In this document: one piece after another, positions 34,732 to 58,506 of the stretch
Numbering within the stretch: the stretch's first letter is position 1
How the letters are laid out: every line of letters starts with the position of its first letter
Source: a virus
Taxonomy: Duplodnaviria > Caudoviricetes
IMG/VR virus record: IMGVR_UViG_3300046839_000055
Location: 64,001 to 128,000 of that record
Strand: one strand, 5' to 3'
Length of the DNA: 64,000 nt
Notes under the pieces: generated by a model
Seen by the model: only the letters and a program-made list of their open reading frames with translations
Databases searched by the model: none
What the model was told of the DNA's origin: nothing
Program-made: the position numbers and the translations under genes

Positions 34732-35515
34732 TTCTCAGTACCTCCTTTATCGTCTCCTGATAGGCTTCCGCTACCTTGCCCTTGGGATCATAGGCAAATA
34801 TGCTTTTTCCTTCTGCACTGATCTCCGCAGCCCGGATGGAACGCGGAATCTCAGAATTAAAGATTCGGATTTTGGATCCATAGGTTGCCCGGATCAGGCT
34901 GCTGATGTCCTTTGCGTAATTCGTCCTGCCATCCACCATCGTCAGAAGAATCCCCTCGATCCGCAGCTTCGGATTGATCTGTCTTTTTACCTTGTTGATC
35001 GTCTGCAGAAGCTGCTCAAGGCCCTTGGCAGACAGGTAGTTGGCCTGTACCGGGATCAGTGCAGAATCCGCAGCGACGAGCGAATTCACTGTCAGCATCC
35101 CCAGACTCGGCATGCAGTCCAGCAGCACATAGTCGTATCTGCCCTTGATCGGTTCAAGAAACTGTTTCAAAACCCTCTCCCGGTTCATCGCATTGACCAG
35201 AGCCACCTCCAGTCCTGCCATCGCAATGTTGGATGGGATCAGGTCTACTCCTTCCTGCTGGTGAAGAATGCCCTTTGATATGTCTACGTAGTTGTCATTG
35301 ATCAGCGACGCAAGCATATCGGCCAATGTCATCTCCAGATCATCCGGCTTCGGATAGCCGAGACAGATCGTCAGCGATGCCTGCGGATCAACATCCACAA
35401 GCAGCACCTTCTTCCCGCATCTGGCAAGTCCGATCCCGAGATTCTCCACCGTTGTAGTTTTTGCTGTGCCACCCTTCTGATTGACGACAGCCATTACTGT
35501 AGTTTTGTCTTTCAT
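34688..35515 (-). CDS. parA: ParA/Soj ATPase
   Basis: NQKGGTAKTTT, DVDPQ, LLDCMPSLG. Confidence 0.93.
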   Translation of the reverse strand: MKDKTTVMAVVNQKGGTAKTTTVENLGIGLARCGKKVLLVDVDPQASLTICLGYPKPDDLEMTLADMLASLINDNYVDISKGILHQQEGVDLIPSNIAMAGLEVALVNAMNRERVLKQFLEPIKGRYDYVLLDCMPSLGMLTVNSLVAADSALIPVQANYLSAKGLEQLLQTINKVKRQINPKLRIEGILLTMVDGRTNYAKDISSLIRATYGSKIRIFNSEIPRSIRAAEISAEGKSIFAYDPKGKVAEAYQETIKEVLRNAEKRRKHQLEQLR

Positions 35516-35535
35516 CTGCCTTTCTCGCTTTCTTA

Positions 35536-36534
35536 TCACGTCCCGTACAAATCGTGATTGACCTGTGCCCGGTAGTAGTGGTCAATCGTCAGCGGTGCGT
35601 TATACAGCATCGTCAGCATATATGCCCTGATATTGCGGATATCTGAGGTCTGATCACGAAAGCAGTTCAAAATGTATTCCATGTGACTGTAATCCAGCTT
35701 CATGATCTGGCTTTTTACCAAAGCTGCCGGCTTATCCTCCCGGTTCACCCGGATTACAGGACTGGTACTGCACATGATGTCCACGCACATATCTAGTAGC
35801 TCGTCCACGGTCTGCGTCTCAAACTGACGATTCTGCTTCAGACTTTCAATTTCCAGCTTTTCCCGGAAGTAATCCTGATATTCCTTTCTCGTTTGCAAAG
35901 AATCATGTGATATCCCATCGATCTCATCGTTTCCTGTTCCGTATTGCTCCAGAGGTTCTTCGCGCGGGGTAGTATCTGGATAGATAGGATTGATAGGATT
36001 CATATTATTAATTTCAGTCTGGTTATTATCAGTCTTATTAGTGTGTGATTCGCACACTTCCAGAGATGTGATATTCACACCCGCAGAAATGTGATTTTCA
36101 CACTTCTGGACCTCCTCATTTGCTTCAGAAGTGTGATTTTCACACTTCTTGAAATGTGATTCTGAAGTATGGTCTGAACTTCCTGTGGAAAACTTCAGAA
36201 CATAGGTCAGAGACGGCTTTCCAAGTCCCTGCCGCTTGCGTCTGATCAGTCCTGCCTTTTTCTCCAGCTCACTCAGCAGCTTCACCGCTTTCTGGTTACC
36301 GCACTGCAGATCGCTCATGATGTCTTCCACTGTGTAAATGATGTATGCTCTGTTCTGATCATCAAACCATCCATTTTTCATCGACAGGGACAGGCGATCC
36401 AGCATCAGCCCGTATAAAAGTTTTGCTTCAACGGAAACTTCGCGGAATTCTTCGCCGGTGATCAATGTCTTCGGAATCCGGTAGAACAGAAACTGTTCCG
36501 CATCTTCCTGTCCGTAGAAATAATCGAATGCCAT
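35536..36534 (-). CDS. repA: RepA_N replication initiator with DUF6017-like C-terminus
   Basis: FYRIPK...AKLLYGLMLDR...RQGLGKP; NIRAYMLTMLYNAP. Confidence 0.9.
   Translation of the reverse strand: MAFDYFYGQEDAEQFLFYRIPKTLITGEEFREVSVEAKLLYGLMLDRLSLSMKNGWFDDQNRAYIIYTVEDIMSDLQCGNQKAVKLLSELEKKAGLIRRKRQGLGKPSLTYVLKFSTGSSDHTSESHFKKCENHTSEANEEVQKCENHISAGVNITSLEVCESHTNKTDNNQTEINNMNPINPIYPDTTPREEPLEQYGTGNDEIDGISHDSLQTRKEYQDYFREKLEIESLKQNRQFETQTVDELLDMCVDIMCSTSPVIRVNREDKPAALVKSQIMKLDYSHMEYILNCFRDQTSDIRNIRAYMLTMLYNAPLTIDHYYRAQVNHDLYGT
36043..36165. repeat. Iteron-like repeats RTGTGAT-N-TCACAC inside repA
   Basis: Copies near 36043, 36066, 36089, 36131, partial at 36154. Confidence 0.8.
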
Positions 36535-44028: not shown

Positions 44029-45270
44029 TTAAAGGTCAAGGTCGGAAGCATCAATTTCACCGGACATGAGCTTTGGTAGTAGAGCATCACGCATATTCGC
44101 AAGCTTTTCATTCTGGAGTCCATTTGCAAATATGACGTCAAAAACCGAATGACAAAATGCATCAAATTTTTCTACAAGCTCTACCGGCGGCAATATGATA
44201 GGTTCGGTCTCTATGAAACCGGAGATATCAAGGTTTTTAATACCTGTTGTCCCGTTTTCATACAGGAAGAAGACGTTTTTGTCATATAGATACTGCCAAT
44301 AGTAGTACACGAACATGCTATAACCCGATTTAGGTTTCATCGCTTTACAGAAATTTGTGCAAACCATACCTTTGTCGTAACGATCAAGGAGCGACTGGGA
44401 AATTGATGCAATCCTTCCTGTTGATTGTGTGGGACTTCCTCCGGAAATCTCTACAACAACATCGCCAGCGACGAGATGCTTTGCAACATAGTTCTTTGGC
44501 AAGATAAAGCGAGTAGGCATTTTACCTTTATTGCCGCTTTTGACATCAGGGATGTCAGCGCCTCGAATGCAATAGACCATCTCAGTATTGTTACCGAGTG
44601 GGGAATCCTTTCCCCAGTCACCGGCAATCATGGTATCAATAATGTCGCTAAAAGTGCCTGTTTCCCAAGAAGAGGATTCAGGTGCATCAATGAACCATGA
44701 TTTGAAGATAGATTGAGCTTGCGCTTCTAAATTCTTGTTTACCTCCGTATTCTGTGTTATTTTCCTATCCAAGCTACCAAGAACATCTGCAATCTTTTTC
44801 TGCGTGGCAAGATCAGGAATTTCTATTTCCAAATTCTCAATATCTGACGGCTTGATTGATGGATATGCAGATGTACTTTGCTCTGCAATTGCATGGAGCG
44901 CTTCCACAAGAGTAGCTTGCGTAAGCAGATAATAAAGAAAATCCGCATCTAACACTTGGGCATCTGTATCAATAACCGCAAATCCTGTCGACACAAGAAA
45001 GTTCTCCGGCTGTGATTTAACGATTCCAAAGTGGCGCTGATTCGGGCGCACCGTAGAATATATGATGCTGTCCTTTTTAACTTTCCTTCTTGCCCTGCTT
45101 GGGAGTTTTTCGTTCTTTACATCTATATACTGAATGGAATCAATCTTATTATCGGTAATGTTACCAGTATCCAGATAATTGACAAAATTCCACTCTTCTT
45201 TAGGAGAATACGAATCCATATTTGTTTTGCAAACATCACCTAATCTGATTTTTCTCCATGCTTCCATCAT
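44029..45270 (-). CDS. hsdS: Type I specificity subunit (two TRDs)
   Basis: TRD1...PDLATQKKIADVLGSLDRKI..NKNLEAQAQ...TRD2...RDALLPKLMSGEI. Confidence 0.93.
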   Translation of the reverse strand: MMEAWRKIRLGDVCKTNMDSYSPKEEWNFVNYLDTGNITDNKIDSIQYIDVKNEKLPSRARRKVKKDSIIYSTVRPNQRHFGIVKSQPENFLVSTGFAVIDTDAQVLDADFLYYLLTQATLVEALHAIAEQSTSAYPSIKPSDIENLEIEIPDLATQKKIADVLGSLDRKITQNTEVNKNLEAQAQSIFKSWFIDAPESSSWETGTFSDIIDTMIAGDWGKDSPLGNNTEMVYCIRGADIPDVKSGNKGKMPTRFILPKNYVAKHLVAGDVVVEISGGSPTQSTGRIASISQSLLDRYDKGMVCTNFCKAMKPKSGYSMFVYYYWQYLYDKNVFFLYENGTTGIKNLDISGFIETEPIILPPVELVEKFDAFCHSVFDVIFANGLQNEKLANMRDALLPKLMSGEIDASDLDL

Positions 45271-45279
45271 GTCACCGTC

Positions 45280-46269
45280 CTAACCTATATATTTTCTGTG
45301 TGCCAATTTTACATTGCTTTGTTTTACCATCGCATATTGCAGCGTCGTATCAATCCGCTTATGACCAAGCAGCTGCTGCAGCTGTTCAATCGGCATCCCT
45401 TTGTCAATTGCCATCGTAGCAAGTGTACGGCGGAACTTGTGCGGATGTACTTTCTCTATATCCAACCTTTTCCCAAGCTCTCGAAGCCTACGCTCAATGC
45501 CGCCGATCTTCAGCCTCTCATGCGGAGCCCGGAGCGATACAAACAGTGCCGGATTATCATCAGTGCGTTCTTGCAGGTAGTTCTGTAAATGAATCTTAGC
45601 CCGTGCGTCAAAGTACACCATCCGTTCTTTGCTACCTTTACCGAACACAACACATTCCCGTTCCTCGAAGTTGATGTCATCCCTGTTAAGCAAAACCAGC
45701 TCTCCGACACGCATCCCCGTTGAGGCAAGCATATCTATCAGTGCCAGATCTCTTGGCTCCTCGCAATTGTCGCGCATTTTCTCCAAGGCCTCATCGGTAT
45801 ATGTCTCCTTGATAGTCAAGGCTGCCTTCACCTTATGGATACGGCGTGCCGGGCTCTTTAGGATATAATCCTCATCCTCCAGCCAAGAGAAGAAGCTCGA
45901 CAGAATTCTTCTGATATTGTCCACCGTGACCTTGCTGGAGTTTTTCTCCCGCTGATATTCTGTCAGGTACGTACGCAGGTCATCCGTTTCCATCTCTCGG
46001 ACATTCTTTTTAACCTTTGCTGTCATCGTTTCTATCGTAGTCCGATAATAAGTCAACGACTTTTCAGAACATCCCTCGATCCGCTTTGCCGCGAGAAAAT
46101 TATCCAAAAGCTGTTCATTTGTTAACGTCGCATTTACTTCTTCCTCCGTCTCGCTTACTTGCTTATGGAACAATGCGTGTTCCAGCACTTCTTGCAGTCT
46201 TTCCAACTGCACATTGTTGAGGCAGCCGAGCATGCCCTGCATAACCTCGTTGATTACTTTCTGTTTCAT
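45280..46269 (-). CDS. Tyrosine recombinase (hsdS invertase)
   Basis: TGMRVGEL, GKGSKER, HPHKFRRTLAT, LLGH...QY; embedded among hsdS segments. Confidence 0.92.
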   Translation of the reverse strand: MKQKVINEVMQGMLGCLNNVQLERLQEVLEHALFHKQVSETEEEVNATLTNEQLLDNFLAAKRIEGCSEKSLTYYRTTIETMTAKVKKNVREMETDDLRTYLTEYQREKNSSKVTVDNIRRILSSFFSWLEDEDYILKSPARRIHKVKAALTIKETYTDEALEKMRDNCEEPRDLALIDMLASTGMRVGELVLLNRDDINFEERECVVFGKGSKERMVYFDARAKIHLQNYLQERTDDNPALFVSLRAPHERLKIGGIERRLRELGKRLDIEKVHPHKFRRTLATMAIDKGMPIEQLQQLLGHKRIDTTLQYAMVKQSNVKLAHRKYIG

Positions 46270-46357
46270 AGTCTGTTCTCCTTTTCTATCGTAGAGAAAG
46301 ACTACGGAGTGGCAATCCCTCTTTTTAACTCTTGCCACTCGCAAGAGTTATGGTTGT

Positions 46358-47005
46358 ATGTTAAACAAGAATTTACTTGAGCAAGTACGGGCACTGTACA
46401 AAGATCGCTTTATAGACCTAATGCCATTTGGTGGTTCTATGCCTTCAGATTGGCATCTCGGCACTGTGTCCGAAATCATCGAGCTTCACGATTCGAAGCG
46501 AATCCCACTTTCAAGTCGTGAACGCGCAGAGTTGGATAAAATTTATCCATACTACGGCGCAACCTCTGTAATGGACTATGTGGACAGGTACCTTTTCGAT
46601 GGAATCTATCTGCTCCTCGGAGAGGATGGTACTGTTATTGACGGGCAAGGTTTCCCAATCCTTCAGTATGTTGAGGGTAAATTCTGGGTTAATAACCATG
46701 CCCACATAATCACTGGTAAGAACGGATTCACAGTCGAACTGCTATACCTTTTATTCAGTTTAACAAATGTGCAGTCCATTGTTACCGGAGCCGTTCAACC
46801 GAAGATCAGTCAAGCCAATCTGAATAAGGTTCCTATCGTTATTCCGTCAGAAGCAGAACTAAAAGCATTTGATGAGAGTATCCAGCCGTTCTTTGCAGAA
46901 ATCCGTAATTTACGGGCTGAAAACGATAGGCTTGCTACTGTACGAGATAGCATGTTACCACGCTTAATGTCCGGAGAGCTTGACGTATCCGATCTGGATT
47001 TTTAA
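46358..47005 (+). CDS. hsdS: Inverted silent hsdS C-terminal TRD segment
   Basis: Starts at NKNL site; WVNNHAH, GAVQPKI, RDSMLPRLMSGEL; opposite strand to the operon. Confidence 0.88.
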   Translation: MLNKNLLEQVRALYKDRFIDLMPFGGSMPSDWHLGTVSEIIELHDSKRIPLSSRERAELDKIYPYYGATSVMDYVDRYLFDGIYLLLGEDGTVIDGQGFPILQYVEGKFWVNNHAHIITGKNGFTVELLYLLFSLTNVQSIVTGAVQPKISQANLNKVPIVIPSEAELKAFDESIQPFFAEIRNLRAENDRLATVRDSMLPRLMSGELDVSDLDF

Positions 47006-47538
47006 GCTGCTAAATTCTTGTTTATCTCAGTGTTCAGTTGAATCTTGTCATCTAATGCCTTCAGCAATCCTCCTATTTTCTTTTGCTCATCGAAATCGGG
47101 AACAGCTATTCGCAAGTTAGCCACCACGTCAGTTTGAACTCTTTGCCTACCGGAAGACCCAACCATAGATTTAATCGCCGGATCACGTACAAGCGGACTG
47201 CAAATCAGATAGTACAAATAGTCCGGATCGGTTCCTTCTTTTGCTCTGAAAACAATGTATTCAGTGGAGCCAAAGCCGACTTCTCCATTATCAAGGCATC
47301 TGACCTGAGCGGTTTTCCCGTTCTCAAGGCAAGGAGTAATTCTTGCCATGATCGTATCCATGTTCCTGAACTTTGTCCCGCCTTTGAATTCCTCCATCTG
47401 ATAGCCGGGAACATCTCTCGTAAAAGGTTGAAGCACGTCCATAGGGATTTTCTTCGCTACTGATCCTTTGCTTATTGACTCACGAGGATTTATCTGGGCG
47501 ATGTCAGAAATGCTTCTTGTTATCCATTCAGATTTCAT
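47002..47538 (-). CDS. hsdS: Half-size hsdS (N-terminal TRD only in this state)
   Basis: ARITPCLENGK, GSSGRQRV, QKKIGGLLKALDDKI..NKNLAA*; overlaps the hsdM stop. Confidence 0.88.
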   Translation of the reverse strand: MKSEWITRSISDIAQINPRESISKGSVAKKIPMDVLQPFTRDVPGYQMEEFKGGTKFRNMDTIMARITPCLENGKTAQVRCLDNGEVGFGSTEYIVFRAKEGTDPDYLYYLICSPLVRDPAIKSMVGSSGRQRVQTDVVANLRIAVPDFDEQKKIGGLLKALDDKIQLNTEINKNLAA

Positions 47539-49036
47539 ACCCAATCGCCCCCAGCTTCTTTCTGATCTCGTCCTCAAGTTCATGAGACTTCTTGAACATC
47601 TCGGAAAGCTCAGAAGTCAGGCGGTCCATTTTCTCCTCGAACGGTTCGCCGTCGTCTTCCTGCTCCTCGATGCCGACATACCGGCCCGGTGTCAGAATGT
47701 AGTCCTGCTTTGCGATGTCCTGCGTGGTGGCAACGGCGCAGAATCCCTTCACGTCCTCGAGTGTTCCATACTGGAAAGCCGAGAAGGTGTCAGCGAGCTT
47801 CTGGATGTCCTCGTCTGTGAAGTCGCGGTGCTTCCGGTCGACCATATGCCCCATCTTCCGGGCGTCGATGAAGACCGTCTTGCCTTTCTGTTTCTTGTTT
47901 TTCGTGATGAACCAGAGCGTGACCGGGATCGTGACGCTGTAGAAGAGCTGCGTCGGCATGGCGACGATGCCTTCGATCAGGTCGTCATTGATGATGTTTT
48001 TGCGGATCTCACCCTCGCCACTCGACTGCGTAGAGAGAGCGCCATTCGCCAGCACCAGACCGATCTTGCCGTTTGGAGCAAGGTGGAAGATCATGTGCTG
48101 AATCCACGCATAGTTGGCGTTCCCGGCAGGCGGCAGGCCATACTTCCAGCGCTTGTCTTCCTTCAGGTCTTCCTGCCCCCACGGATGATAGTTGAAGGGA
48201 GGATTTGCGAGGATGTAATCTGCCTTCAAAGTCGGATGCAGGTCGTTGGTGAAGGTGTCCGCATTGTATGGCCCGAGGTCAGCGTCGATTCCACGGATGG
48301 CCATGTTCATCTTCGCCATCTTCCAGGTATCCGGATTTGCCTCTTGACCATACACAGAAATCACGCCGCGATTATGGCTGTGACCCTCCGCGAATCGTTC
48401 ACTCTGTACAAACATTCCACCGCTGCCACAGCAACAATCGTATACGCGGGAATTCGGCTCCGGCTTGAGTATTGCGACCAGCGTTTTGACGATGCTGGAC
48501 GGCGTATAGAATTCGCCGCCGCCGACGCCTTCCTTCTCCGCAAACTGCGCAATGCAATACTCATACGTGCGCCCGAGCAGATCTTCACTCGCCTGCGTAT
48601 CAGACATGTCGATGTTGTTCGTGAAGATGTCCACGACATCGCCAAGGACCTTCTTATCCAGATCCGGCGAAGCGTAGTTCTTCGGCAGCACGCCTTTCAG
48701 ACTCTTGTTGTCATCCTCGATAGCGCGCATCGCCTTGTCGATGACTGTTCCGATCTCCGGTGTATGAGCAGCTGCAGCGATGGTTTCCCAGCGCGCTTCC
48801 TTTGGCACGAAGAAGATGTTGTCCATCAGGTAGGCGTCCGGATCATCCTCGAACCCATCGCCGTCCTCGACCAGCTTCTTGTACTGCGCCTCGAACGCAG
48901 CCGAAATGTAGCGAAGGAAGATAAGGCCGATGATGACCTTCCTGTACTCCGCCGCCGGAATGTGTCCCCACAGGACGCACGCCGCATCCCATATCTGTTT
49001 CTCAAAGCCAATATTGGCATTCGTCTTTTCAGCCAT
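47528..49036 (-). CDS. hsdM: Type I N6-adenine methyltransferase
   Basis: GEFYTP, DCCCGSGGMF, ANPPF. Confidence 0.96.
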   Translation of the reverse strand: MAEKTNANIGFEKQIWDAACVLWGHIPAAEYRKVIIGLIFLRYISAAFEAQYKKLVEDGDGFEDDPDAYLMDNIFFVPKEARWETIAAAAHTPEIGTVIDKAMRAIEDDNKSLKGVLPKNYASPDLDKKVLGDVVDIFTNNIDMSDTQASEDLLGRTYEYCIAQFAEKEGVGGGEFYTPSSIVKTLVAILKPEPNSRVYDCCCGSGGMFVQSERFAEGHSHNRGVISVYGQEANPDTWKMAKMNMAIRGIDADLGPYNADTFTNDLHPTLKADYILANPPFNYHPWGQEDLKEDKRWKYGLPPAGNANYAWIQHMIFHLAPNGKIGLVLANGALSTQSSGEGEIRKNIINDDLIEGIVAMPTQLFYSVTIPVTLWFITKNKKQKGKTVFIDARKMGHMVDRKHRDFTDEDIQKLADTFSAFQYGTLEDVKGFCAVATTQDIAKQDYILTPGRYVGIEEQEDDGEPFEEKMDRLTSELSEMFKKSHELEDEIRKKLGAIGYEI

Positions 49037-49042
49037 TTGTGA

Positions 49043-49291
49043 TTACTCCTCGTTTTCCGTTTTCTTTATTGATTCAACCGCCGGTTCTTCATCCTTTACG
49101 ATCTCCATAATGTCGGAGACTTCGCAGTTGAGGGCTACGCATATTCGGAGAAGGACATCAGTGTTCACGTTGCCGCCTTTAGCGAGTTTTGCGATTGAGG
49201 TGGCGCTGACTCCGCTCATTTCCCGTAGCTGTTTCTTTTTAATGTTTCTGTCGATCAATAGCTTGAACAATCTGTTATAGCTAAAGCGCAT
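49043..49291 (-). CDS. Cro/CI-like HTH_26 regulator
   Basis: FSYNRLFKLLIDR...LLRICVALNCEVSDIME. Confidence 0.85.
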   Translation of the reverse strand: MRFSYNRLFKLLIDRNIKKKQLREMSGVSATSIAKLAKGGNVNTDVLLRICVALNCEVSDIMEIVKDEEPAVESIKKTENEE

Positions 49292-49338: not shown

Positions 49339-51165
49339 TTACTTCACATCATTTAAAAACCCATACCGTTTACCCGGTTCCTCGACTTTCTCGAACGTGG
49401 TGACAGTCGCACCGCTGCCTTCATAATCCAGGTTCGGAATATGGTCGAGATTTTCTATAATGATGAGCTGTCCCTCGTCCTGATGATTCATGAAATAACG
49501 GTAGAGTCCAGCCCGCATGCTTTCTGGCATGCCTTCATCCACGCCGTCGTCGAATCCGTGGAGTGGTGTGTCGATGATGAATGTGTGCGGATCGAACTTT
49601 GCAAAATTGGCCAGGTATTTTCTGATCATCAGAATCATTACCGTGTTCAGATATGACCGGTATCCTTTTCCGTGACTTGTTCCCTTATCCTCGCCATTGA
49701 CCATGATGTCGAACTTCGTGAAGTTGAATGTTGCCTTCAACAGATCAGAGTAATGGCATTCCTTGAGGATCGTCTGTGCATATTCCGACATGGTCGGAAC
49801 GAAATCGTCGCTGAAGTATTCCTTCGGATGGTACTCGGTCGTCGTGTCGTTTTTCTGCTCGTTTTCAAGATCATCCAGATCGCTGCCAAAATCCTCTGCA
49901 TAGGAATCGATGAGACTCATTTCCGTTTCAATCCGCAGGTAGGCCTTGTAGGAATTCACGATGTTCATCTGCTGAGACTCCTGTGGCCGGAGTTCCTTTT
50001 TGATTCTGGATTCAAGCGAATCACGTTGCTCTTTGAGTTTCCGGAGATCCTCCTGTACTTCCTTCTTCTGGTCATCCACGTCCTTTTCAGTTTCTTGAAG
50101 GCCGGACAGCTGGGACATCGTTCGCTCCATAGTGATACGAGCTGACTGCATGTAGGACTTTCGCTTACGCGGATTGACCGGATTGTCACAGTACGGACAA
50201 ATGAGCGGCTGCTGCACATTCTGGTATGCTTCCTCGCCCTCGGCGATAAGAGAAAGCCTCTGAATATCGCCTTTATACTGACTTGCAAGTTTCTGGTATC
50301 GGTTCAGAAGAACATTGCATTCTGCGATCTGCTGTTCGTCATCAAGAATGGCTGCGAGGATCTTCTGTCTTTCCTCCAGAGCCTGATCTATCTTTTTTCG
50401 CGTTTCATCAAGTGCCGCTGTAGCTTCAGCAATCTGAGCTTCCACATCTACGCCATCAAAGATGTGCAGATCCTCTTCGAGTTTTTTCTTCCGGTCCGTC
50501 GCATTCTGAATCTTCTGATTCACGTAGTCCTTGACTGCCTTGCGGCGGGCCTTCTTTATTTCCTTTTTCTCCTGCGCATCTGTTTCGGTAAATGTCCGGC
50601 CAGTAATCAGATATAGGAGCGCCGACAGAAAGAGAGTGTTTTCCATATAACGATGGCTCGGTTCCACAATGGAATCGATGTCGTCCACACGGCCTTCATC
50701 CAGATAGAAGACGCGCAGCAGGTTCTTCCAAGTGAGGCGCTTTGTCTCGAACCGGGCATTTGTCACGATCATGACTTCTGGCTCTATGCCGATAAGCCGA
50801 AGCCATACATCATTCAGCGGAGGATTCTTGGCGTTCTTCCTATAGTTAATGTCGTAGGTTCCGCTGTCAATTCCTGATATTGTGCTTGTGACGTCAACCT
50901 GGTTTTTCCCTACGGTACGACGAAGCGTTATTTCTCCGGGCTTGTCATTCGATCCCACGATCATGGTCACGCTATCGTACTTTGCCGAATCCTTGAACGG
51001 CTTGCTCACAGAGCCGCCGTATATAAAGTCGATGCAGTTTGCAACACACGTCTTTCCGCTGTCTGAGCGGCCCTGAATGATGTTCAGGCCCGTGCCGAAG
51101 GTAACGCTGGCATCGCCTTTTTCGGCGCTGTTCGCTATGACTCTTTTGATATAGAATCCCGCCAC
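49339..51165 (-). CDS. ABC three-component / Lamassu LmuB-like SbcC-type ATPase
   Basis: Walker A GRSDSGKT, coiled coils with zinc hook CPYC, HGKGY, Walker B FIIDTP, IIIEN. Confidence 0.85.
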   Translation of the reverse strand: MAGFYIKRVIANSAEKGDASVTFGTGLNIIQGRSDSGKTCVANCIDFIYGGSVSKPFKDSAKYDSVTMIVGSNDKPGEITLRRTVGKNQVDVTSTISGIDSGTYDINYRKNAKNPPLNDVWLRLIGIEPEVMIVTNARFETKRLTWKNLLRVFYLDEGRVDDIDSIVEPSHRYMENTLFLSALLYLITGRTFTETDAQEKKEIKKARRKAVKDYVNQKIQNATDRKKKLEEDLHIFDGVDVEAQIAEATAALDETRKKIDQALEERQKILAAILDDEQQIAECNVLLNRYQKLASQYKGDIQRLSLIAEGEEAYQNVQQPLICPYCDNPVNPRKRKSYMQSARITMERTMSQLSGLQETEKDVDDQKKEVQEDLRKLKEQRDSLESRIKKELRPQESQQMNIVNSYKAYLRIETEMSLIDSYAEDFGSDLDDLENEQKNDTTTEYHPKEYFSDDFVPTMSEYAQTILKECHYSDLLKATFNFTKFDIMVNGEDKGTSHGKGYRSYLNTVMILMIRKYLANFAKFDPHTFIIDTPLHGFDDGVDEGMPESMRAGLYRYFMNHQDEGQLIIIENLDHIPNLDYEGSGATVTTFEKVEEPGKRYGFLNDVK

Positions 51166-51169
51166 GCCA

Positions 51170-51616
51170 TTACCTCCTTAATACCTTCGTAGACTGTTTA
51201 TTGATGATTCCGGATAGCTCGACTTCTGACTTATTCCGGTATCGCCTGTGAACCTGTTTTATCACCTTCCTGTACATGGCCGCATATTCAGACTGGAATT
51301 TCCTGCTCATGGCAAGGCCTGAACTGGAAAGCGAATAGATAATCCCTTCCATGCTGTCGGAGGCGGTGACAAGGCCGTCGAGTACCAGATCCTTGATGGC
51401 TTCCTTCATCAGCTTGCGCTTTGCAGTCAGTTCACTGAATGCGAATCCATTGTCGCCGTTCAGGGATTCGGCTTTGAATCCGAAGTCTGGCGCGTACACT
51501 GCTATGAAATCATAGTCTGTTATCCGCTCGATGGTGAATCCGCCGCCGACGGAATCCAGGAGAAGCAGGATATGAAGCGACTGTTCAAACGGCGTGTTGA
51601 AAAGTTTATCAGCCAT
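51170..51616 (-). CDS. ABC three-component middle component (LmuC-like)
   Basis: LFNTPFE..LHILLLL...YDFIAVY..DFG...LNGD...KDLVLDGLV. Confidence 0.8.
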   Translation of the reverse strand: MADKLFNTPFEQSLHILLLLDSVGGGFTIERITDYDFIAVYAPDFGFKAESLNGDNGFAFSELTAKRKLMKEAIKDLVLDGLVTASDSMEGIIYSLSSSGLAMSRKFQSEYAAMYRKVIKQVHRRYRNKSEVELSGIINKQSTKVLRR

Positions 51617-52586
51617 CGACTGTCACCCACGACTCAATTACGCCGTCATTAACCAGAATGTGGCAAATGCCTTTCTTTTCAAGATTCCCGATCAGGTTTC
51701 GCATCTGGCTTAGTACAGAGCCATCAAGTGAAGTGCTCGTAATCTTCTCCAGCACAGCATTCAGTCTTGCATAGCCGTCCGGGTATTCCTTCCAGTAAGT
51801 AGTGTTGATGCCGTCCCATGCATCGTCTTTCAGCCTTTGGAATTCATCCTCGCCCTCGTCGAATACATCCCGCACAGAGCGTTCGATACTGACGGCGCTG
51901 TAATACGCTTTCCGCTGCTCCCGGTAGTTTGCCTTCATACTTTTCGGGAGCAGGTCTAAATCGTCTCCAGTAAATGTTTCCCTGTGCAGCTTCTCCGCGA
52001 AGACCTCGTAGAGAGCTCGTATGTAGTCGAGTTCCTGCTCGGCTATGTTGTCCGGTACGAGAGCCCGGTCAATTGTTATAACCTCGCCTGCAATATGTAG
52101 TTTGTCGCCTCTGCGTTCAATTGACGCAGGGGCGATATTTTTTAGCAGCTGACCTGATTCATAGCGCTTGTAGTCCAGCTTGACTACTTCGTCGGAAAGG
52201 CCCTCGGAGCGCCGCTTAATCATCTGCGCGAGGATGTTCGCCAAAGCTCTGCCTACGTCATAGGAAGGCACATCGAATCCGTATTCTGCCAGCTTATCCC
52301 TTACATGATCCAGCGCATCCATCGAGTAGGTCTCTACGAAACCTGCAAATGTCTCTTCGGAAAGTCGCGGAACAATCTGGGCTGCCTTCTTTTGTGAAAT
52401 GGGGCGCCTGCCACTGTAGTAAGCCTCAAGTGTGGATTTTCCGAGTCCATAAAGAGGATTCGGAGCGTCCTTTTCCAGCGCTGCATCGTCAAGGATGGCG
52501 TCAATCAATATGACGACGAATTCGCCAGCTTTTGCTTTTTCTTCATAGTTGTCGTGCATGAGCTTTGCGAACTCACAGAACCTCAC
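51609..52586 (-). CDS. ABC three-component CTD protein (LmuA-like) with HTH-like N-terminus
   Basis: CTD: QRKAYYSA..RSVRD..EFQRLKDD..DGYARLNAVL..KKGICHILVNDG..W; GTG start after AGGAGG. Confidence 0.78.
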   Translation of the reverse strand: MRFCEFAKLMHDNYEEKAKAGEFVVILIDAILDDAALEKDAPNPLYGLGKSTLEAYYSGRRPISQKKAAQIVPRLSEETFAGFVETYSMDALDHVRDKLAEYGFDVPSYDVGRALANILAQMIKRRSEGLSDEVVKLDYKRYESGQLLKNIAPASIERRGDKLHIAGEVITIDRALVPDNIAEQELDYIRALYEVFAEKLHRETFTGDDLDLLPKSMKANYREQRKAYYSAVSIERSVRDVFDEGEDEFQRLKDDAWDGINTTYWKEYPDGYARLNAVLEKITSTSLDGSVLSQMRNLIGNLEKKGICHILVNDGVIESWVTVDG

Positions 52587-52606
52587 GGCGCTCTCCTCCT
52601 TTCCGG

Positions 52607-52637
52607 ATGTAGGCATTCATGTAGGCAGATGTAGGCA
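52607..52637. promoter_or_regulatory. Three ATGTAGGCA direct repeats (operator candidates)
   Basis: 52607, 52619, 52629, just upstream of the RBS in the divergent intergenic region. Confidence 0.6.
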
Positions 52638-52928
52638 AACGTACGAATTTCAAAATGCCGATTTCGTAAACTCATATTAGCGATTGAAAGTTACTGGGTA
52701 ACACCGCAATCGCTGAAGACAGGAATACAAGATAATTTTACCACGCTCGCACGCAAAAATCTATTTAATTTTGTGAACGCGAAATAAATTTTAACTTCCT
52801 GTCACTGACTCAAGCGTTCCGGCTGCGCACTGACCGATCACCAGTGGCCCACACACCAGAGCGCAAACCAATTCATTAAAGGCGTGCCTATGGGCAGGAA
52901 CGCCACATTACGTCACGGAGGAAAAACG

Positions 52929-53120
52929 ATGACAAAAACTGACAAGGAAATGTGGCGTATCAACATCGAGAACGACGCAGACGAAGTTTGCTCCATCTAT
53001 GGAGCGGCGGCTGTCGATGGCGTGTTCCAGCGCTACGACGCGACCTGCTTCGACGATCTCAGCCCTTCCTATTACGAGGAAGTGTTCGGGGATCTGGAGC
53101 TGATGATTTACGACAACTGA
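52929..53120 (+). CDS. Small acidic protein, first gene of the phage-direction operon
   Basis: MTKTDKEMWRINIEN...EEVFGDLELMIYDN; RBS GGAGG. Confidence 0.7.
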   Translation: MTKTDKEMWRINIENDADEVCSIYGAAAVDGVFQRYDATCFDDLSPSYYEEVFGDLELMIYDN

Positions 53121-53409
53121 GAATCTCCTATGAAACATATCGGAAAAGGGCTCCAAAACAGCCCGCAAAGCTCCATATGTTAAGAGGTTCGGATTTGCCC
53201 TGAGCAAGGCGTTAAAAGGCTCACTGCCATAGCCGTTCACCCCGGTGCACAGAGGTGGCTCGAGCGGCTGTAGCGGTCACAAGTGAATAGGAAACCAGTC
53301 TACGAGCGTGGCTGGCCGAACGAAACGAGTTGATTCCCGTTCCGTCTGGCCTGTCACGCTCCTTTTTGTGCGGCCTCCGGTTCGGGAGAAGCGAACGGAG
53401 GTATCGCAC

Positions 53410-53910
53410 ATGAAAACCAATGACAATCAGAGTAAACGCATCTACGACAAGACCACAAAGCAGTGGTACGAAATCCCGGAGGACCAGTATAGGGAGTATG
53501 ACCGCTCGCGCACCGCTCTTCGGAAACGCATGCAGTATCGAGGCGAGTGCTTCTGCCCGCGCAGCAAGTGGTGGCTGTGCGACGGCAACTGCCTCGACTG
53601 CGAATTTCACAACAACACGACCGTCTCTCTTGACGATCCGCTGCCGGACGGCGATGGAACGCTCGCCGACTATGTACCGGATGACGCTCCTCTTATTGAA
53701 GAGGTGCTTTCCGAGAAGGCGGAGCTGGATCAGCTGTTCGCACGTCTGCAGGAGCTCATGCCGGAGGCCAAGCGTATCGGCGAGCTCAGGGAGGAAGGCC
53801 TCTCCGACGAGGCCATCGCCGACATCATCGGCATCAAGCGCACGACATTCCTGTCACGCCTGAAGAAAGCCAAGGAAAAGCTGGCTAAGGAATTCCCCGA
53901 CTGGTTCTGA
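53410..53910 (+). CDS. Phage sigma-70 region 4-like factor with Cys cluster
   Basis: CFCP...CDGNCLDCEF, SLDDP, C-terminal HTH EGLSDEAIADIIGIKRTTFLSRLKK. Confidence 0.8.
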   Translation: MKTNDNQSKRIYDKTTKQWYEIPEDQYREYDRSRTALRKRMQYRGECFCPRSKWWLCDGNCLDCEFHNNTTVSLDDPLPDGDGTLADYVPDDAPLIEEVLSEKAELDQLFARLQELMPEAKRIGELREEGLSDEAIADIIGIKRTTFLSRLKKAKEKLAKEFPDWF

Positions 53911-54256: not shown

Positions 54257-54524
54257 CAGCGCAGCCGACTGGCTCTACCAGCAGTTCTCCGGCAACGACG
54301 AGGAGCCCGCTCCGCAGCCTGAAACTGCGCAGGCCGAGCCTGAGCCGAAGAAGGAGCTGAAGCTGGAGGATGTGAGGAAGGTTCTCGCCGAACGTTCCCG
54401 CGCAGGCTATACGGCGCAGATCCGCGAGCTTCTCCATAAGTACGGTGCGAGCAAGCTGTCGGCTGTCGATCCGAAGGACTACGAGGCCCTGCTCTTTGAT
54501 GTGGAGGGACTCAATGAATTCTGA
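54192..54524 (+). CDS. Conserved phage protein
   Basis: MSKMAEMD...LEDVRKVLAERSRAG...LLHKYGASKLSAVDP. Confidence 0.75.
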   Translation: MSKMAEMDQTIKELRDAAAAINSAADWLYQQFSGNDEEPAPQPETAQAEPEPKKELKLEDVRKVLAERSRAGYTAQIRELLHKYGASKLSAVDPKDYEALLFDVEGLNEF

Positions 54525-55656
54525 AAGACAGCATGCGGTCCTCTCCGCATCAAGCTCCGACCGGTGGATTCACTGCCCGCCGTCGGTACGGCTTAGCGAG
54601 GGATTCGAGGACAAGGAAAGCGACTACGCACTGGAAGGCACCTGCGCTCACGCGCTCGCCGAATACAAGCTCCGCAAGGCGCTCGGCTACCCGGCACAGG
54701 ACCCGACCGAGGCCCTTGCCTTCTACAACGAGGAGATGGAGGAAGCAACAGATGGCTATGTCAGCTACGTACTGGAAAAGGTCGAGGCCGCAAAAGAGGC
54801 CTGCTCTGATCCGGTTGTTCTGGTCGAGCAGCGCGTGGACTACTCCCGCTGGGTGAGACAGGGCTTCGGCACATCCGATGCGCTGATCATCGCGGATGGC
54901 ACGCTTTGGATCATCGATCTGAAGTACGGCACCGGCATCGCCGTGTCGGCGGAGGACAATCCGCAGCTCAAATGCTACTCGCTTGGAGCCTTGGATCTGT
55001 TCGACGGCATCTACGACATCGACACCGTCAGCATGACGATTTACCAGCCGAGACGGCAGAACGTCAGCGAATGGCAGATCAGCAAGAATGACCTGCTCGC
55101 ATGGGCGGACGAGGTTCTGAAGCCTATGGCGGAGCTGGCGTGGGACGGCAAGGGGGAATTCTCCTGCGGCCCGTGGTGCCGGTTCTGCAAGGCGAAGACC
55201 ATCTGCCGGAAGCGGGCCGAGGAGAACCTGAAGCTCGCGCAGCATGAGTTCAGGCTGCCGCCGGAGCTCTCCGACGCGGAGATCGAGGTCATCCTTTCCC
55301 AGGTGGACGAGCTGGTCTCGTGGGCGTCCGACATCAAGGAGTACGCGCTCCAACAGGCGCTCTCCGGCAAGGAGTGGCATGGCTTCAAGCTCGTCGAAGG
55401 CCGCTCCATCCGCAAGTACATCGACGAGAACGCCGTCGCCAAGACGGTCGAAGACGCCGGATTCGATCCATTCGAGAGGAAGCTGCTCGGCATCACCGCC
55501 ATGCAGAAGCTCCTCGGAAAGAACCGATTCAATGAACTCCTGTCAGGCCTCGTTGAGAAGCCGCAGGGCAAACCAACACTCGTCCCGGACTCGGATAAGC
55601 GTCCGGCGATGAATACAGCAAAAAACGATTTTATGGAGGTCAAAAACTATGAGTAA
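54514..55656 (+). CDS. DUF2800 PD-(D/E)XK (Cas4-like) exonuclease
   Basis: HAVLSASSSDRWIHCPPS, FGTSD, IIDLKYG, WCRFCKAKTIC. Confidence 0.9.
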   Translation: MNSERQHAVLSASSSDRWIHCPPSVRLSEGFEDKESDYALEGTCAHALAEYKLRKALGYPAQDPTEALAFYNEEMEEATDGYVSYVLEKVEAAKEACSDPVVLVEQRVDYSRWVRQGFGTSDALIIADGTLWIIDLKYGTGIAVSAEDNPQLKCYSLGALDLFDGIYDIDTVSMTIYQPRRQNVSEWQISKNDLLAWADEVLKPMAELAWDGKGEFSCGPWCRFCKAKTICRKRAEENLKLAQHEFRLPPELSDAEIEVILSQVDELVSWASDIKEYALQQALSGKEWHGFKLVEGRSIRKYIDENAVAKTVEDAGFDPFERKLLGITAMQKLLGKNRFNELLSGLVEKPQGKPTLVPDSDKRPAMNTAKNDFMEVKNYE

Positions 55657-56227
55657 GACAACTATGCACAATCCGATGAAGGTTATCACCGGTCCGAACA
55701 CCCGCTGGTCCTACGCCAACGTGTGGGAGCCGAAGTCCATCAACGGAGGCACACCAAAGTACAGCGTGAGCCTCATCATCCCGAAGTCCGACACCGTGAC
55801 GGTCGCCAAGATCAAGGCTGCCATTGATGCCGCCTACAAGGAGGGCGAGGCCAAGCTCAAGGGCAACAGCCGCAGCGTTCCTGCGCTCTCTGCGATCAAG
55901 ACGCCTCTTCGTGACGGCGACGCGGAGCGCCCGGACGACGAAGCCTACCGCAACGCCTACTTCGTGAATGCGAACGCCACGACCGCTCCAGGCATCGTGG
56001 ATGCGGATCTGAATCCGATCATGAGCCGCAGCGAGGTGTACTCCGGCGTGTACGGCAGAGCCAGCATCACCTTCTATGCATTCAACAGCTCCGGCAACCG
56101 CGGCATCGCCTGCGGGCTCAACAACCTGCAGAAGATCCGTGACGGCGAGCCGCTCGGCAGCAAGGCCAGCGCTGAATCCGACTTCGCTGACTTCGCAACC
56201 GACGACGACAGCGATTTTCTGAACTAA
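55649..56227 (+). CDS. DUF2815 phage ssDNA-binding protein
   Basis: RWSYANVWEP, PLRDGD, GLNNLQKIRDGEPLG, acidic tail. Confidence 0.9.
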   Translation: MSKTTMHNPMKVITGPNTRWSYANVWEPKSINGGTPKYSVSLIIPKSDTVTVAKIKAAIDAAYKEGEAKLKGNSRSVPALSAIKTPLRDGDAERPDDEAYRNAYFVNANATTAPGIVDADLNPIMSRSEVYSGVYGRASITFYAFNSSGNRGIACGLNNLQKIRDGEPLGSKASAESDFADFATDDDSDFLN

Positions 56228-56239
56228 GGAGGTGCCACC

Positions 56240-56437
56240 ATGAAGGACATTATGGAAATCATCCTCTACATCATCATGGCAGTCGGCGGCATCGCAGGAA
56301 TCGGACTCCTGCTCTCCATGACGGTTCTCGCGATCCGCTCCGGCAAGGAGGAGCAGGCGCGTGAGGCTCGTCAGGAGGAGCGCGACAAGGAGTACCACGA
56401 GCGCCGCATGAAGGAGCTCGAAGCGCACCGCGACTGA
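56240..56437 (+). CDS. Small membrane protein
   Basis: One TM helix plus charged tail; RBS AGGAGG. Confidence 0.6.
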   Translation: MKDIMEIILYIIMAVGGIAGIGLLLSMTVLAIRSGKEEQAREARQEERDKEYHERRMKELEAHRD

Positions 56438-56508
56438 TCCAGCAAGACCATAAATGCAATGGCGGGCGGCAGGGACTTATCTCTCTGCCGCCTTATTCGT
56501 GAATTGAG

Positions 56509-58506
56509 GTGAAAAATGTGAAAACCATCAGCATAGACATTGAGACGTACAGCGATGTCGATCTGGGCAAATGCGGCGTCTACAAGTACTCGGAATCTCC
56601 GGCTTTCGAGATTCTCCTGTTCGGCTACAGCGTGGACGGCGGACCCGTGCAGGTCATCGACCTTGCATCCGGCGAAGACATCCCCGAAGACATTCTCGAC
56701 GCACTTACAGATGAGACAGTCGTCAAGTGGGCGTTTAACGCTAACTTCGAGCGCGTCTGCCTGTCACGCTACCTGCGCGACCGGGGACGCAGCCTTGACC
56801 CGTTCCATGACAACCATCCACTGACATTGGGGCCCGCGCGGTTTCTGAATCCGGAGGGCTGGCGCTGTTCGATGGTCTGGGCGGCGACAATGGGACTCCC
56901 GCTCAGCCTGAAGGGCGTCGGCGCAGTCCTCAAGCTCGAGGACCAGAAGATGGATGAAGGCAAGGCGCTCATCCGCTACTTCTCCGTCCCCTGCGCACCC
57001 ACCAAGGCGAACGGCGGCAGAACGCGCAACCTGCCCTCCGACGATCCCGGCAAATGGGAAACCTTCAAAAAGTACAACCAGCGCGACGTCGAGGTCGAGA
57101 TGTCAATCCAGCGGAAGCTACGGAACTTCCCGGTGCCGGACTTCGTGTGGGACGAGTACCACATCGACCAGGAGATCAATGACCGCGGTGTGCGCATCGA
57201 CATGGACCTTGTGGAGAAGGCCATTGATATGGACACCCGCTCCCGCGGCGAGCTCACCGAGAAGATGCAGAAGCTGACCAATCTCGACAATCCGAACAGC
57301 GTGCAGCAGATGAAGCAGTGGCTCTCCGACAACGGCATGGAGGTCGACAGCCTCGGAAAGAAGGCCGTCGCAGCGCTCCTCAAGACCGCGCCGCCGGAGC
57401 TGGCCGAGGTTCTGGAGCTTCGTCAGCAGCTCGCCAAATCATCCGTGAAGAAGTATCAGACGATGCAGCGGGCCGTGTGCGATGACAGCCGGGCTCGCGG
57501 CATGTTCATGTTCTACGGAGCAAACCGCACCGGGCGCTGGGCCGGACGGCTCATCCAGCTGCAGAACCTGCCGCAGAACCACCTGCCTGACATGGATGCG
57601 GCGCGGGCTCTGGTGAAGTCCGGCGACTACGACGCGGTGAAGCTTCTCTATGAGGATGTGCCTGATACGCTCAGCCAGCTGATCCGCACTGCGTTCATTC
57701 CGCGTGACGGCTGCCGGTTCTATGTGGCGGACTTCTCCGCCATCGAAGCCCGCGTCATCGCATGGTACGCAGGCGAGCAGTGGAAATCCGACGCGTTCGC
57801 GAACGGCGAGGACATCTACTGCAGCACAGCAAGCCGCATGTTCCATAAGCCGGTCGTCAAGCACGGCGTCAACGGCGAGCTCCGCGCCAAGGGCAAGATC
57901 GCGGAACTGGCCTGTGGCTATGGTGGCTCGACCGGAGCGTTGAAGGCGATGGGCGCACTGGAGATGGGGCTCACGGAGGATGAGCTTCCGGACATTGTCT
58001 CCTCGTGGCGGGATGCAAACCAGCAGATCGTGAAATTCTGGTGGGATGTCGACAAGGCCGTCATGGCCGCCGTCAAGAACCACAAGACCACCCGGCTCGG
58101 AAAGCTCGTGTTCTTCTGGCAGGCGGGCATGCTGTTCATCACCCTGCCGTCCGGACGGAACCTTGCATATGTGAAGCCGAAGGTCGGCATGAACCGTTTC
58201 GGCGGCGAGTGCATCACCTATGAGGGCGTAGGCGGCACGAAGAAATGGGAGCGCCTCGAATCGTACGGTCCGAAGTTCGTGGAGAACATCGTGCAGGCCA
58301 CCAGCCGTGACATCCTGTGCAACAGCATGAAGACGCTCCGCTGCTGTGATATCTGCATGCATATCCATGACGAGCTTGTCATCGAAGCCGATCCACGCGT
58401 CTCCCTCGAAGCCCTGTGTGAGCAGATGGGCCGCGTCCCCGCATGGGCGGATGGTCTCGTGCTTCGTGCGGACGGGTATGCCTGCGATTTCTATAAGAAA
58501 GATTAA
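56509..58506 (+). CDS. Phage family A DNA polymerase
   Basis: DIETYS exonuclease motif, TGRW..QLQNLP, ADFSAIEARV, KIAELACGYGG, HIHDE. Confidence 0.95.
   Translation: MKNVKTISIDIETYSDVDLGKCGVYKYSESPAFEILLFGYSVDGGPVQVIDLASGEDIPEDILDALTDETVVKWAFNANFERVCLSRYLRDRGRSLDPFHDNHPLTLGPARFLNPEGWRCSMVWAATMGLPLSLKGVGAVLKLEDQKMDEGKALIRYFSVPCAPTKANGGRTRNLPSDDPGKWETFKKYNQRDVEVEMSIQRKLRNFPVPDFVWDEYHIDQEINDRGVRIDMDLVEKAIDMDTRSRGELTEKMQKLTNLDNPNSVQQMKQWLSDNGMEVDSLGKKAVAALLKTAPPELAEVLELRQQLAKSSVKKYQTMQRAVCDDSRARGMFMFYGANRTGRWAGRLIQLQNLPQNHLPDMDAARALVKSGDYDAVKLLYEDVPDTLSQLIRTAFIPRDGCRFYVADFSAIEARVIAWYAGEQWKSDAFANGEDIYCSTASRMFHKPVVKHGVNGELRAKGKIAELACGYGGSTGALKAMGALEMGLTEDELPDIVSSWRDANQQIVKFWWDVDKAVMAAVKNHKTTRLGKLVFFWQAGMLFITLPSGRNLAYVKPKVGMNRFGGECITYEGVGGTKKWERLESYGPKFVENIVQATSRDILCNSMKTLRCCDICMHIHDELVIEADPRVSLEALCEQMGRVPAWADGLVLRADGYACDFYKKD

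Follow-up and report, generated by a model that had tools for sequence, protein, structure and literature searches.

What does the LmuA protein of a Lamassu system do when its effector position holds a module with no recognisable enzyme motif? Lamassu is usually understood as a sensor that releases a toxic enzyme, and the question is raised by a leftward trio of genes, lmuA-lmuC-lmuB, in a 64,000-nucleotide stretch of viral DNA (positions 64,001 to 128,000 of IMG/VR record IMGVR_UViG_3300046839_000055, a 158-kb virus contig; hereafter the window, in whose numbering coordinates are given unless another locus is named). An original prediction, made from the sequence alone, had seen in this trio a defence system whose effector looked like a DNA-binding repressor. 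We found that the N-terminal module of LmuA, which we call N-dom, is common to several kinds of immune proteins and is preceded in many loci by phased direct repeats whose sequence changes from clade to clade, and we tentatively propose that N-dom binds these repeats and that LmuA regulates its own operon.

The identity of the trio was established by profile and fold comparisons (features in Table 1). LmuA matched the PADLOC LmuA model PDLC03857 over its full length (E 9.4e-99), with Pfam CTD6 at residues 195-330 (E 6.7e-37) and a beta-meander plus CTD6 together spanning residues ~156-325. LmuC matched Pfam MC2 (E 2.7e-38) and PADLOC LmuC (E 2.4e-45), and LmuB matched PADLOC LmuB end to end (E 2.4e-217) as well as AAA_23. 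The Walker A motif of LmuB (GRSDSGKT, residue 32) and its zinc hook (CPYC, residue 323, mid coiled coil) are both kept in relatives. In the AlphaFold2 model of LmuA (mean pLDDT 84), residues 166-333 aligned with the solved C-terminal domains (CTDs) of V. cholerae and Salmonella LmuA (9uxi_A, 9nxx_A and 9hr5_C) at Z 11-12 and root-mean-square deviations of 2.8-3.0 A; the best alignment, to 9uxi_A, reached Z 12.2 and 2.8 A over 130 residues, and the next unrelated chain Z 4.3. The operon is tight, lmuA and lmuC overlapping by 8 nt and lmuC being separated from lmuB by 4 nt, and the gene order is repeated in more than 70 related loci (34 of the loci collected are on IMG/VR viral contigs and 44 in genomes, and several come from metagenomes). 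The profile matches and the CTD fold therefore identify the trio as a genuine short (type II) Lamassu, and the CTD protein, middle component and zinc-hook ATPase that the original prediction had placed in ABC-3C order are all borne out. Because PADLOC already detects this LmuA type, the system is of a known kind; by analogy with the solved proteins, the CTD would be expected from its fold to dock on LmuB/C and to tetramerise. LmuA probably starts at GTG 52586 rather than at an in-frame upstream ATG at 52616 (open reading frame (ORF) 51609-52616), because a AAGGAGGAG Shine-Dalgarno precedes the GTG and most homologues are 325 aa long. The G+C content is ~0.50 across the trio vs ~0.59 in the phage genes. 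As a separate observation on LmuB, the Walker B region (residues 529-536) reads FIIDTP, Thr replacing the usual catalytic Glu of ABC ATPases, and this DTP is kept in all relatives checked.

We next turned to the effector position. In the model of LmuA residues 11-190 (mean pLDDT 87), eight helices precede a small beta-meander assigned to the CTD6 part. N-dom has no Pfam family, and a profile search of solved structures was also empty; when 11 stand-alone members of the family were compared with Pfam at E values up to 10, no match was obtained and no helix-turn-helix (HTH) family appeared. The best Foldseek match in the PDB was a SaPI Stl chain (E 0.72, probability 0.2), and exhaustive VIA-align reached no more than Z 4.8, with at most Z 2.8 in second-look alignments and Z 2.2 for an EspR chain. 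The only BFVD matches were three uncharacterised gut siphovirus proteins of the same family. Phe, Leu, Gly, Ala and Pro make up most of the best-conserved positions, with one Asn, two Asp and one Cys besides; they resemble no catalytic set, and the module looks non-enzymatic. The earlier observation that the LmuA N-terminus carries no recognisable enzyme motif thus stands in Pfam, solved-structure sequence and fold searches alike. The fold comparison proposed to settle its nature cut both ways, returning no toxin or nuclease fold and no DNA-binding fold either. The Xre-like segment that had been proposed there did not hold up statistically: the resemblance (G-x-R-x-I-S...A, like helices 3-4 of Xre proteins) is by eye only, with no Pfam match and no fold match above Z 4.8, and hhalign of N-dom with the neighbouring HTH_26, MC2, 63-aa acidic protein and sigma-like gene families gave probabilities of at most 1% (1% for HTH_26).

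The module is nevertheless widespread. When 1.84 billion representative proteins were searched with a profile built from the first 180 residues, 632 were retrieved at E<=1e-3. Among the matches listed, N-dom (the first ~130-135 residues) was nearly always N-terminal, and its partners were CTD6 and CTD11 LmuA proteins, NB-ARC/NACHT STAND NTPases with TPR or WD40 repeats, a TIR-VWA protein, a HamA fusion and a PTH2 fusion, with further stand-alone proteins of 136-143 aa; judged by these profile matches, N-dom is a mobile module. Presence on sensors (CTD6/CTD11 LmuA, STAND) as well as on effector fusions and stand-alones is typical of adaptor domains, and some loci split LmuA into an N-dom ORF and a CTD6-only ORF. 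N-dom might accordingly be an effector-associated (Death-like) adaptor that pairs homotypically with an N-dom effector protein (N-dom-HamA, -PTH2 or -TIR) elsewhere in the host or phage. We consider this distinctly unlikely: a six-frame hmmsearch of the 158-kb contig at maximum sensitivity found no second N-dom copy, only LmuA itself, and in two host genomes carrying this LmuA type the sole match was again the Lamassu-linked copy. Nor would such pairing explain the phased repeats described below.

Among the loci with a split LmuA, a short, CTD6-only LmuA of 232-239 aa was seen in L078, L039, L040, L042 and L044. In L078 (6799-7827 and 7836-8555) a separate 342-aa ORF lies just upstream of the short LmuA; in L040 the upstream ORF carries N-dom and its own CGGTAG repeats.

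Further evidence on the function of N-dom came from the leader of lmuA. Three exact copies of TGCCTACAT on the gene strand (read as ATGTAGGCA on the other) lie at 52607, 52619 and 52629, just upstream of the lmuA ribosome-binding site as had been noticed originally, with ~21 nt between the last copy and the GTG; a possible degenerate fourth copy, CGTACGT, is found at ~52639-52645. No further copy of TGCCTACAT exists in the 158-kb contig (chance expectation ~0.66 per strand), no second array was found there with one mismatch allowed, and the lmuA leader was the sole site of the tandem repeat pair in two host genomes (3.2 and 3.8 Mb). Similar devices recur in front of N-dom genes of different architectures, among them CTD6 LmuA, NB-ARC STAND and genes with an unassigned C-terminal part, as three to five direct copies of an 8-9-bp unit, nearly always spaced by 10 then 12 bp, with the last copy ending ~20 nt before the start codon and a -10-like TATAGA/TATAAA box ~28 nt upstream of the first. 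When an array was defined as three copies spaced 9-12 bp with at least 6 of 8 identical columns, phased arrays were present in 41% of 56 unique N-dom leaders, vs 2% of 389 control leaders from the same loci and 0.1% of shuffles.

The repeat unit differs between clades (TGCCTACA, GCATACAT, GGATACAT, GGACA, CGGTC, GGTAG, TGATAG, GATAATC, TGACC or GCGCAC), and the copies inside one locus stay alike. The arrays follow N-dom beyond Lamassu: GGACA-type triplets precede two N-dom-NB-ARC-TPR genes (L096 and L098) in loci without LmuC, where HTH_26, a small regulator gene described below, was not seen in the flanking DNA retrieved. In 400 Clostridia genomes, four further N-dom genes had AGACA/GGACA, GGATACA, GGTAGGC or GATACA arrays, and clades without HTH_26 retain leader repeats. 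Repeat divergence correlated with N-dom divergence (r 0.87). The repeats are a conserved cis-element tied to N-dom. The lmuA leader RNA had no Rfam match and an unremarkable fold stability (z -0.72). The UACAU cores of the repeats were also considered as MazF-type cleavage sites, and this idea was rejected, the units of other clades (CGGTC, GGTAG, GATAATC) being unrelated.

Since N-dom is the sole component common to all repeat loci, the simplest candidate for the repeat binder is N-dom itself, and protein and site would then diversify together; the repeats being real, conserved and tied to N-dom, nucleic-acid binding would be the most economical account of the module. The 10-12-bp phasing favours DNA as the target, and a DNA-binding role for the LmuA N-terminus is plausible from these comparisons. 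An array found once per genome points to autoregulation, not to a regulon. We therefore favour, a little short of even confidence, the reading that N-dom binds the repeats and that LmuA autoregulates its own operon. N-dom would recognise the phased TGCCTACAT repeats (three, perhaps four) sequence-specifically between the promoter and the ribosome-binding site, a step suggested by the comparative evidence. Free or oligomerised (tetrameric) LmuA would then repress the lmuACB-HTH_26 transcript, as its position and homology suggest, and this transcript probably also includes the phase-variable type I restriction system. In solved Lamassu, a LmuA monomer is held via its CTD, and DNA ends trigger its release, tetramerisation and the activation of its nuclease domain (10.1101/2025.06.23.660979). 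By analogy, an alarm would here strengthen the repression, four N-doms gathering on the phased repeats and shutting the transcript off.

Several points weigh against autoregulation by a DNA-binding N-dom. Neither an HTH nor another DNA-binding fold or profile was detected in N-dom by Pfam, hhalign, Foldseek or VIA-align, and the module is acidic overall (isoelectric point (pI) 4.9), only residues 45-80 being basic (pI 9.7). The covariation at r 0.87 is confounded by shared ancestry, and a sliding partial-correlation scan of N-dom found no recognition segment (maximum partial correlation 0.29). RNA binding would be possible, because the repeats lie in the transcribed leader beside the ribosome-binding site. 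In the STAND and CTD11 loci a small basic divergent protein could be an alternative repeat binder. Finally, a site restricted to the leader amounts to feedback and gives no output, and N-dom STAND proteins exist without another effector domain (P0161) and without an operon partner (P0161; L096), which suggests a second, effector-type activity of N-dom. The output would come either from the co-transcribed HTH_26 and restriction genes or from such a second activity.

The small divergent protein was seen in L096 (1899-2039, minus strand) and L097 (221-379, minus strand); it is 46-52 aa long, basic, beta-rich-looking and somewhat AbrB-like.

The lack of another output domain in these STAND proteins, and of an operon partner for P0161, is also what would be expected if the trio were an ordinary abortive-infection Lamassu carried as a prophage moron, with N-dom an unrecognised toxin activated by CTD-driven tetramerisation like the Cap4 LmuA. 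The repeats would then merely limit the expression of a dangerous protein, and lysogeny would be controlled separately, by HTH_26 or another phage regulator. Every Lamassu part is canonical, N-dom sits exactly at the effector position of LmuA and of the STAND NTPases, and the repeat array has no second copy and hence no regulon; prophage arms are also known defence hotspots, and restriction-modification, BREX and GmrSD genes adjoin the trio here and in relatives. We regard this explanation as possible although rather doubtful, given that N-dom shows no conserved catalytic-type residues and no toxin-fold match and is fused to bona fide effectors (TIR-VWA, HamA, PTH2), which is unexpected for a toxin domain. 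Clade-specific phased repeats further imply a sequence-specific binder that diversifies with N-dom.

If N-dom does bind its repeats, a bolder extension can be drawn, in which Lamassu has been rewired from killing to signalling. In a widespread family of gut Clostridia prophages, LmuA tetramers released by the alarm would sit on four repeats and silence the immunity transcript, and with it the HTH_26 repressor and the co-transcribed restriction system, leading to RecA-independent prophage induction or an altered defence state, and N-dom with its repeats would be a portable output module of Lamassu and STAND proteins. We judge this scheme unlikely as a whole. Its prophage-induction switch is speculative, and any such role would be indirect. 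Direct wiring to the early promoter, as implied by the original prediction, is not supported: the array is confined to lmuA's own leader and recurs nowhere else on the contig or in either host genome. Its picture of the effector as a DNA-binding repressor survives in part, through the non-enzymatic-looking module and the conserved repeats, and without the Xre/HTH homology on which it had leaned.

A more conventional regulator lies at the other end of the operon. The HTH_26 gene, which encodes a Cro/C1-type protein, starts 47 nt downstream of lmuB and is followed by hsdM. Synteny was counted in the 42 distinct loci that carry this LmuA type and for which 3 kb or more of upstream sequence was available, and HTH_26 directly follows lmuB in 35 of them. 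The recognition helix of HTH_26 (SATSIAKL) hardly varies among loci with unrelated leader repeats. HTH_26 is not the repeat binder, then, because the helix is near-constant while the repeats differ. A better candidate partner for it is a palindrome between lmuA and the early genes, with the family consensus TTTGCG-N2-CGCAAA and a mostly fixed distance to the lmuA start (mode about -197). With up to 2 mismatches allowed, it was present in 33 of 54 N-dom leaders vs 12% of random 450-nt windows; most loci with HTH_26 have it, and it was not found in clades without HTH_26. Because the conserved palindrome is matched with a conserved recognition helix, HTH_26 is the likelier conventional repressor, a Cro/CI-type candidate for the divergent promoters predicted to act at the palindrome. 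HTH_26 may instead control the downstream restriction or BREX genes, because in Lamassu-less relatives it is the first gene of a helicase/methylase cluster that lies apart from the early promoter, and one of them, NatCom_11578, lacks the palindrome. The earlier statement that no conventional CI repressor is visible needs amending accordingly: no S24 peptidase or LexA-like domain was found among the prophage ORFs scanned, and the Cro/C1-type HTH_26 gene had been overlooked.

This leaves little room for LmuA itself as the prophage immunity repressor, acting on the early promoter with the Lamassu sensor as a RecA-independent induction switch. The position of lmuA, diverging from the early operon, does recur over 33-84% LmuA identity, the scanned prophage ORFs hold no S24-type repressor, and repeat/N-dom pairs diversify as immunity specificities do. 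We nonetheless hold this reading to be very improbable: the repeats occur only in the lmuA leader, downstream of the -10-like box and not at the early promoter; the locus has a conserved Cro/C1-type HTH gene and a conserved palindrome to match; roughly half of the related loci lie away from this phage operon; and the N-dom and repeat device is also found in non-phage contexts.

Small Xre-type genes were also seen next to N-dom outside Lamassu. In L099 (4977-5189) and L100 (4698-4910) a 70-aa HTH_26 gene directly follows a 1508-aa N-dom-NACHT-WD40 protein, and in L101 an Xre HTH gene precedes a stand-alone N-dom gene, in a context resembling an integrative and conjugative element (ICE). The pairing of N-dom with small Xre genes may be a recurrent one.

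How closely is the trio bound to this phage? An operon of DUF2800, SSB (single-stranded DNA-binding protein) and PolA genes diverges from lmuA in 20 of the 42 loci, LmuA identity among these being 33-84%. The divergence from a sigma/DUF2800-type operon, whose constancy the original prediction had proposed to survey, thus recurs without being constant. The genes after HTH_26 vary (type I or type II restriction, or BREX), and the closest relative, at 95% identity, shows two serine recombinases and fewer small divergent genes instead. The leader, lmuACB and HTH_26 are therefore a cassette, found as a unit often, though not always, beside this phage's early operon. The same cassette, with 75-77% LmuA identity, was also noted on two Bifidobacterium contigs (L051 and L058), where the repeats are GGACAT and the LmuA segment KSTLEA becomes ANTRLA. 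The presence of the Lamassu cassette both in many Clostridia and in these two Bifidobacterium genomes indicates transfer across phyla.

In the window, lmuA diverges from the phage early operon as originally described: the 63-aa acidic gene is followed by the sigma-like gene, the DUF2800, Enc34-type SSB and PolA genes, a DUF3987 primase, an HNH gene and an SNF2 gene. Homologues of the 63-aa protein occupy the same position in 21 loci, duplicates included, and in 10 of 47 distinct N-dom-type loci. For the sigma-like gene, a longer ORF (53308-53910) matched Sigma70_r4_2 at E 0.0025, under the curated cut-off, and the L010 homologue weakly matched Sigma70_ECF. Farther right lie a methylase, a tyrosine recombinase trio, terminase, portal and capsid genes, a GH25 lysin and two serine recombinases. 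To the left of HTH_26 are type I restriction genes with an hsdS shufflon, GmrSD and two unknown genes, then RepA_N, ParA and ParB. The PolA DNA is 73% identical to that of the Acutalibacteraceae phage NatCom_11578, whose taxonomy line reads Ca. Heliusvirales. Judged by PolA identity and gene layout, the carrier is a Heliusvirales-like temperate phage of gut Clostridia, with the trio in its leftward lysogeny/accessory arm. The Heliusvirales are described as among the most widespread human gut phage lineages (PMC11283538), and we found no literature on lysogeny control in this group.

Other features of the contig were noted in passing. The 63-64-aa acidic family (pI ~4; L003 9490-9684, L007 9538-9729) persists where the rest of the phage operon is gone, and its members could be a DNA mimic, an anti-defence protein or a cassette partner. 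Sub-threshold matches to the Rfam 'DUF2800 RNA' (29.9 and 27.1 bits, for a gathering score of 60.2) fall at 52815-52909 and 53224-53392 on the plus strand, the first in the leader of the 63-aa gene and the second in that of the sigma-like gene; given these matches, regulation of the early operon might act at the RNA level. In the type I restriction locus (44029-47583), several hsdS halves on both strands flank a tyrosine recombinase gene and make up a phase-variable specificity shufflon. ParB, ParA and RepA_N/DUF6017 genes (33790-36534) lie left of the defence cluster; with these genes there, the record includes plasmid- or ICE-like maintenance functions, and the prophage has no clear left end. 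A recombinase-in-trio element, made of three tyrosine recombinase genes in a row (L001 5056-8390, minus strand; contig 133056-136390), is inserted between the replication and packaging modules.

Table 1. Features of the lmuACB locus and of the adjoining early region, in window coordinates.
Feature	Position	Strand	Basis or remark
lmuA, 325 aa from GTG 52586	51609..52586	minus	PADLOC LmuA + Pfam CTD6
N-dom, ~135-aa all-alpha module, effector position of LmuA	52182..52586	minus	profile + AlphaFold2 model
lmuC, MC2 middle component	51170..51616	minus	Pfam MC2, PADLOC LmuC
lmuB, SMC/Rad50-like ABC ATPase, coiled coil + zinc hook	49339..51165	minus	PADLOC LmuB, AAA_23
Ribosome-binding site GGAAAGGAGGAG of lmuA	52593..52604	minus	direct sequence reading
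Three exact TGCCTACAT direct repeats (gene strand)	52607..52637	minus	spacing 10 and 12 bp
82-aa Cro/C1-type HTH gene (HTH_26)	49043..49291	minus	Pfam HTH_26 E 1.1e-16; HTH_3 E 2.5e-6
Imperfect palindrome TTTCGCG-TT-CACAAA	52770..52783	+ strand reading	candidate HTH_26 operator, ~197 nt upstream of lmuA start
63-aa acidic protein, pI 4.05, first gene of rightward early transcript	52929..53120	+	divergent from lmuA
Sigma-like early gene	53420..53863	+	weak Sigma70 region 4/HTH signal
Replication genes: DUF2800 PD-(D/E)XK, Enc34-type SSB, family A DNA polymerase	54445..58506	+	Pfam E 3.5e-163, 2.3e-74, 3.8e-21

A large phage-borne Lamassu branch with a probable nucleic-acid-binding module in the effector position would show that immune sensors of the SMC and STAND types can have a regulatory output. 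A new domain family with 632 representatives (E<=1e-3) and a cognate cis-element that can be read from sequence also offers an experimental handle. The findings further put a defence sensor in the region that controls lysogeny in Heliusvirales-like phages. We found no literature linking LmuA to an HTH or to prophage control, and the N-dom family, its repeat device and its place at a phage divergent control region appear to be undescribed.

The closest known systems are the type II Lamassu/ABC-3C systems of V. cholerae (DdmABC, that is, LmuACB) and Salmonella (LmuACB), with which the trio shares the order LmuA-LmuC-LmuB, an SMC-like coiled-coil LmuB and the LmuA CTD fold (Z 12.2). Unlike in these systems, a ~135-aa helical module here replaces the Cap4 nuclease (or Sir2, protease or lipase), and phased leader repeats and a conserved HTH_26 gene at the operon end are added. 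The V. cholerae LmuB has no zinc hook according to the published account, whereas the present one does, and the published LmuA effectors are Cap4, Mrr, protease, Sir2, HNH, SMEK, lipase and FMO. A short-Lamassu clade apparently devoid of an effector domain, Haudiquet's clade O, has also been published, with LmuB and LmuC intact; the CTD6-only LmuA proteins (232-239 aa) of some related loci would match it. In the window, by contrast, the N-terminal module is present, conserved and common to other systems, and in one short-LmuA locus (L040) N-dom is not lost but found on the separate upstream ORF, the 342-aa ORF of L078 being comparable.

Beyond Lamassu, effector-associated (Death-like) adaptor domains are small helical N-terminal modules on sensors and effector fusions, as N-dom is; N-dom differs in having a sequence-specific cis-element, no paired second copy on the contig and no Pfam match to an effector-associated domain. 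In the MalT-type STAND regulators, signal-induced oligomerisation brings DNA-binding domains onto an array of direct repeats. N-dom likewise heads NB-ARC/NACHT-TPR/WD40 proteins and is accompanied by direct repeats, but it is N-terminal and not a LuxR-type HTH, its repeats lie in its own leader and not upstream of target promoters, and its binding is a prediction. Lastly, in the lambda cI-rexA-rexB operon, the lysogen expresses defence genes from the transcript that also encodes the small repressor and that diverges from the early lytic operon. The locus in the window resembles it in grouping a small repressor-type gene with defence genes that diverge from an early operon; unlike in lambda, the repressor-like gene is here last and not first, the defence is a Lamassu, and an extra cis-element is present in the form of the phased leader repeats.

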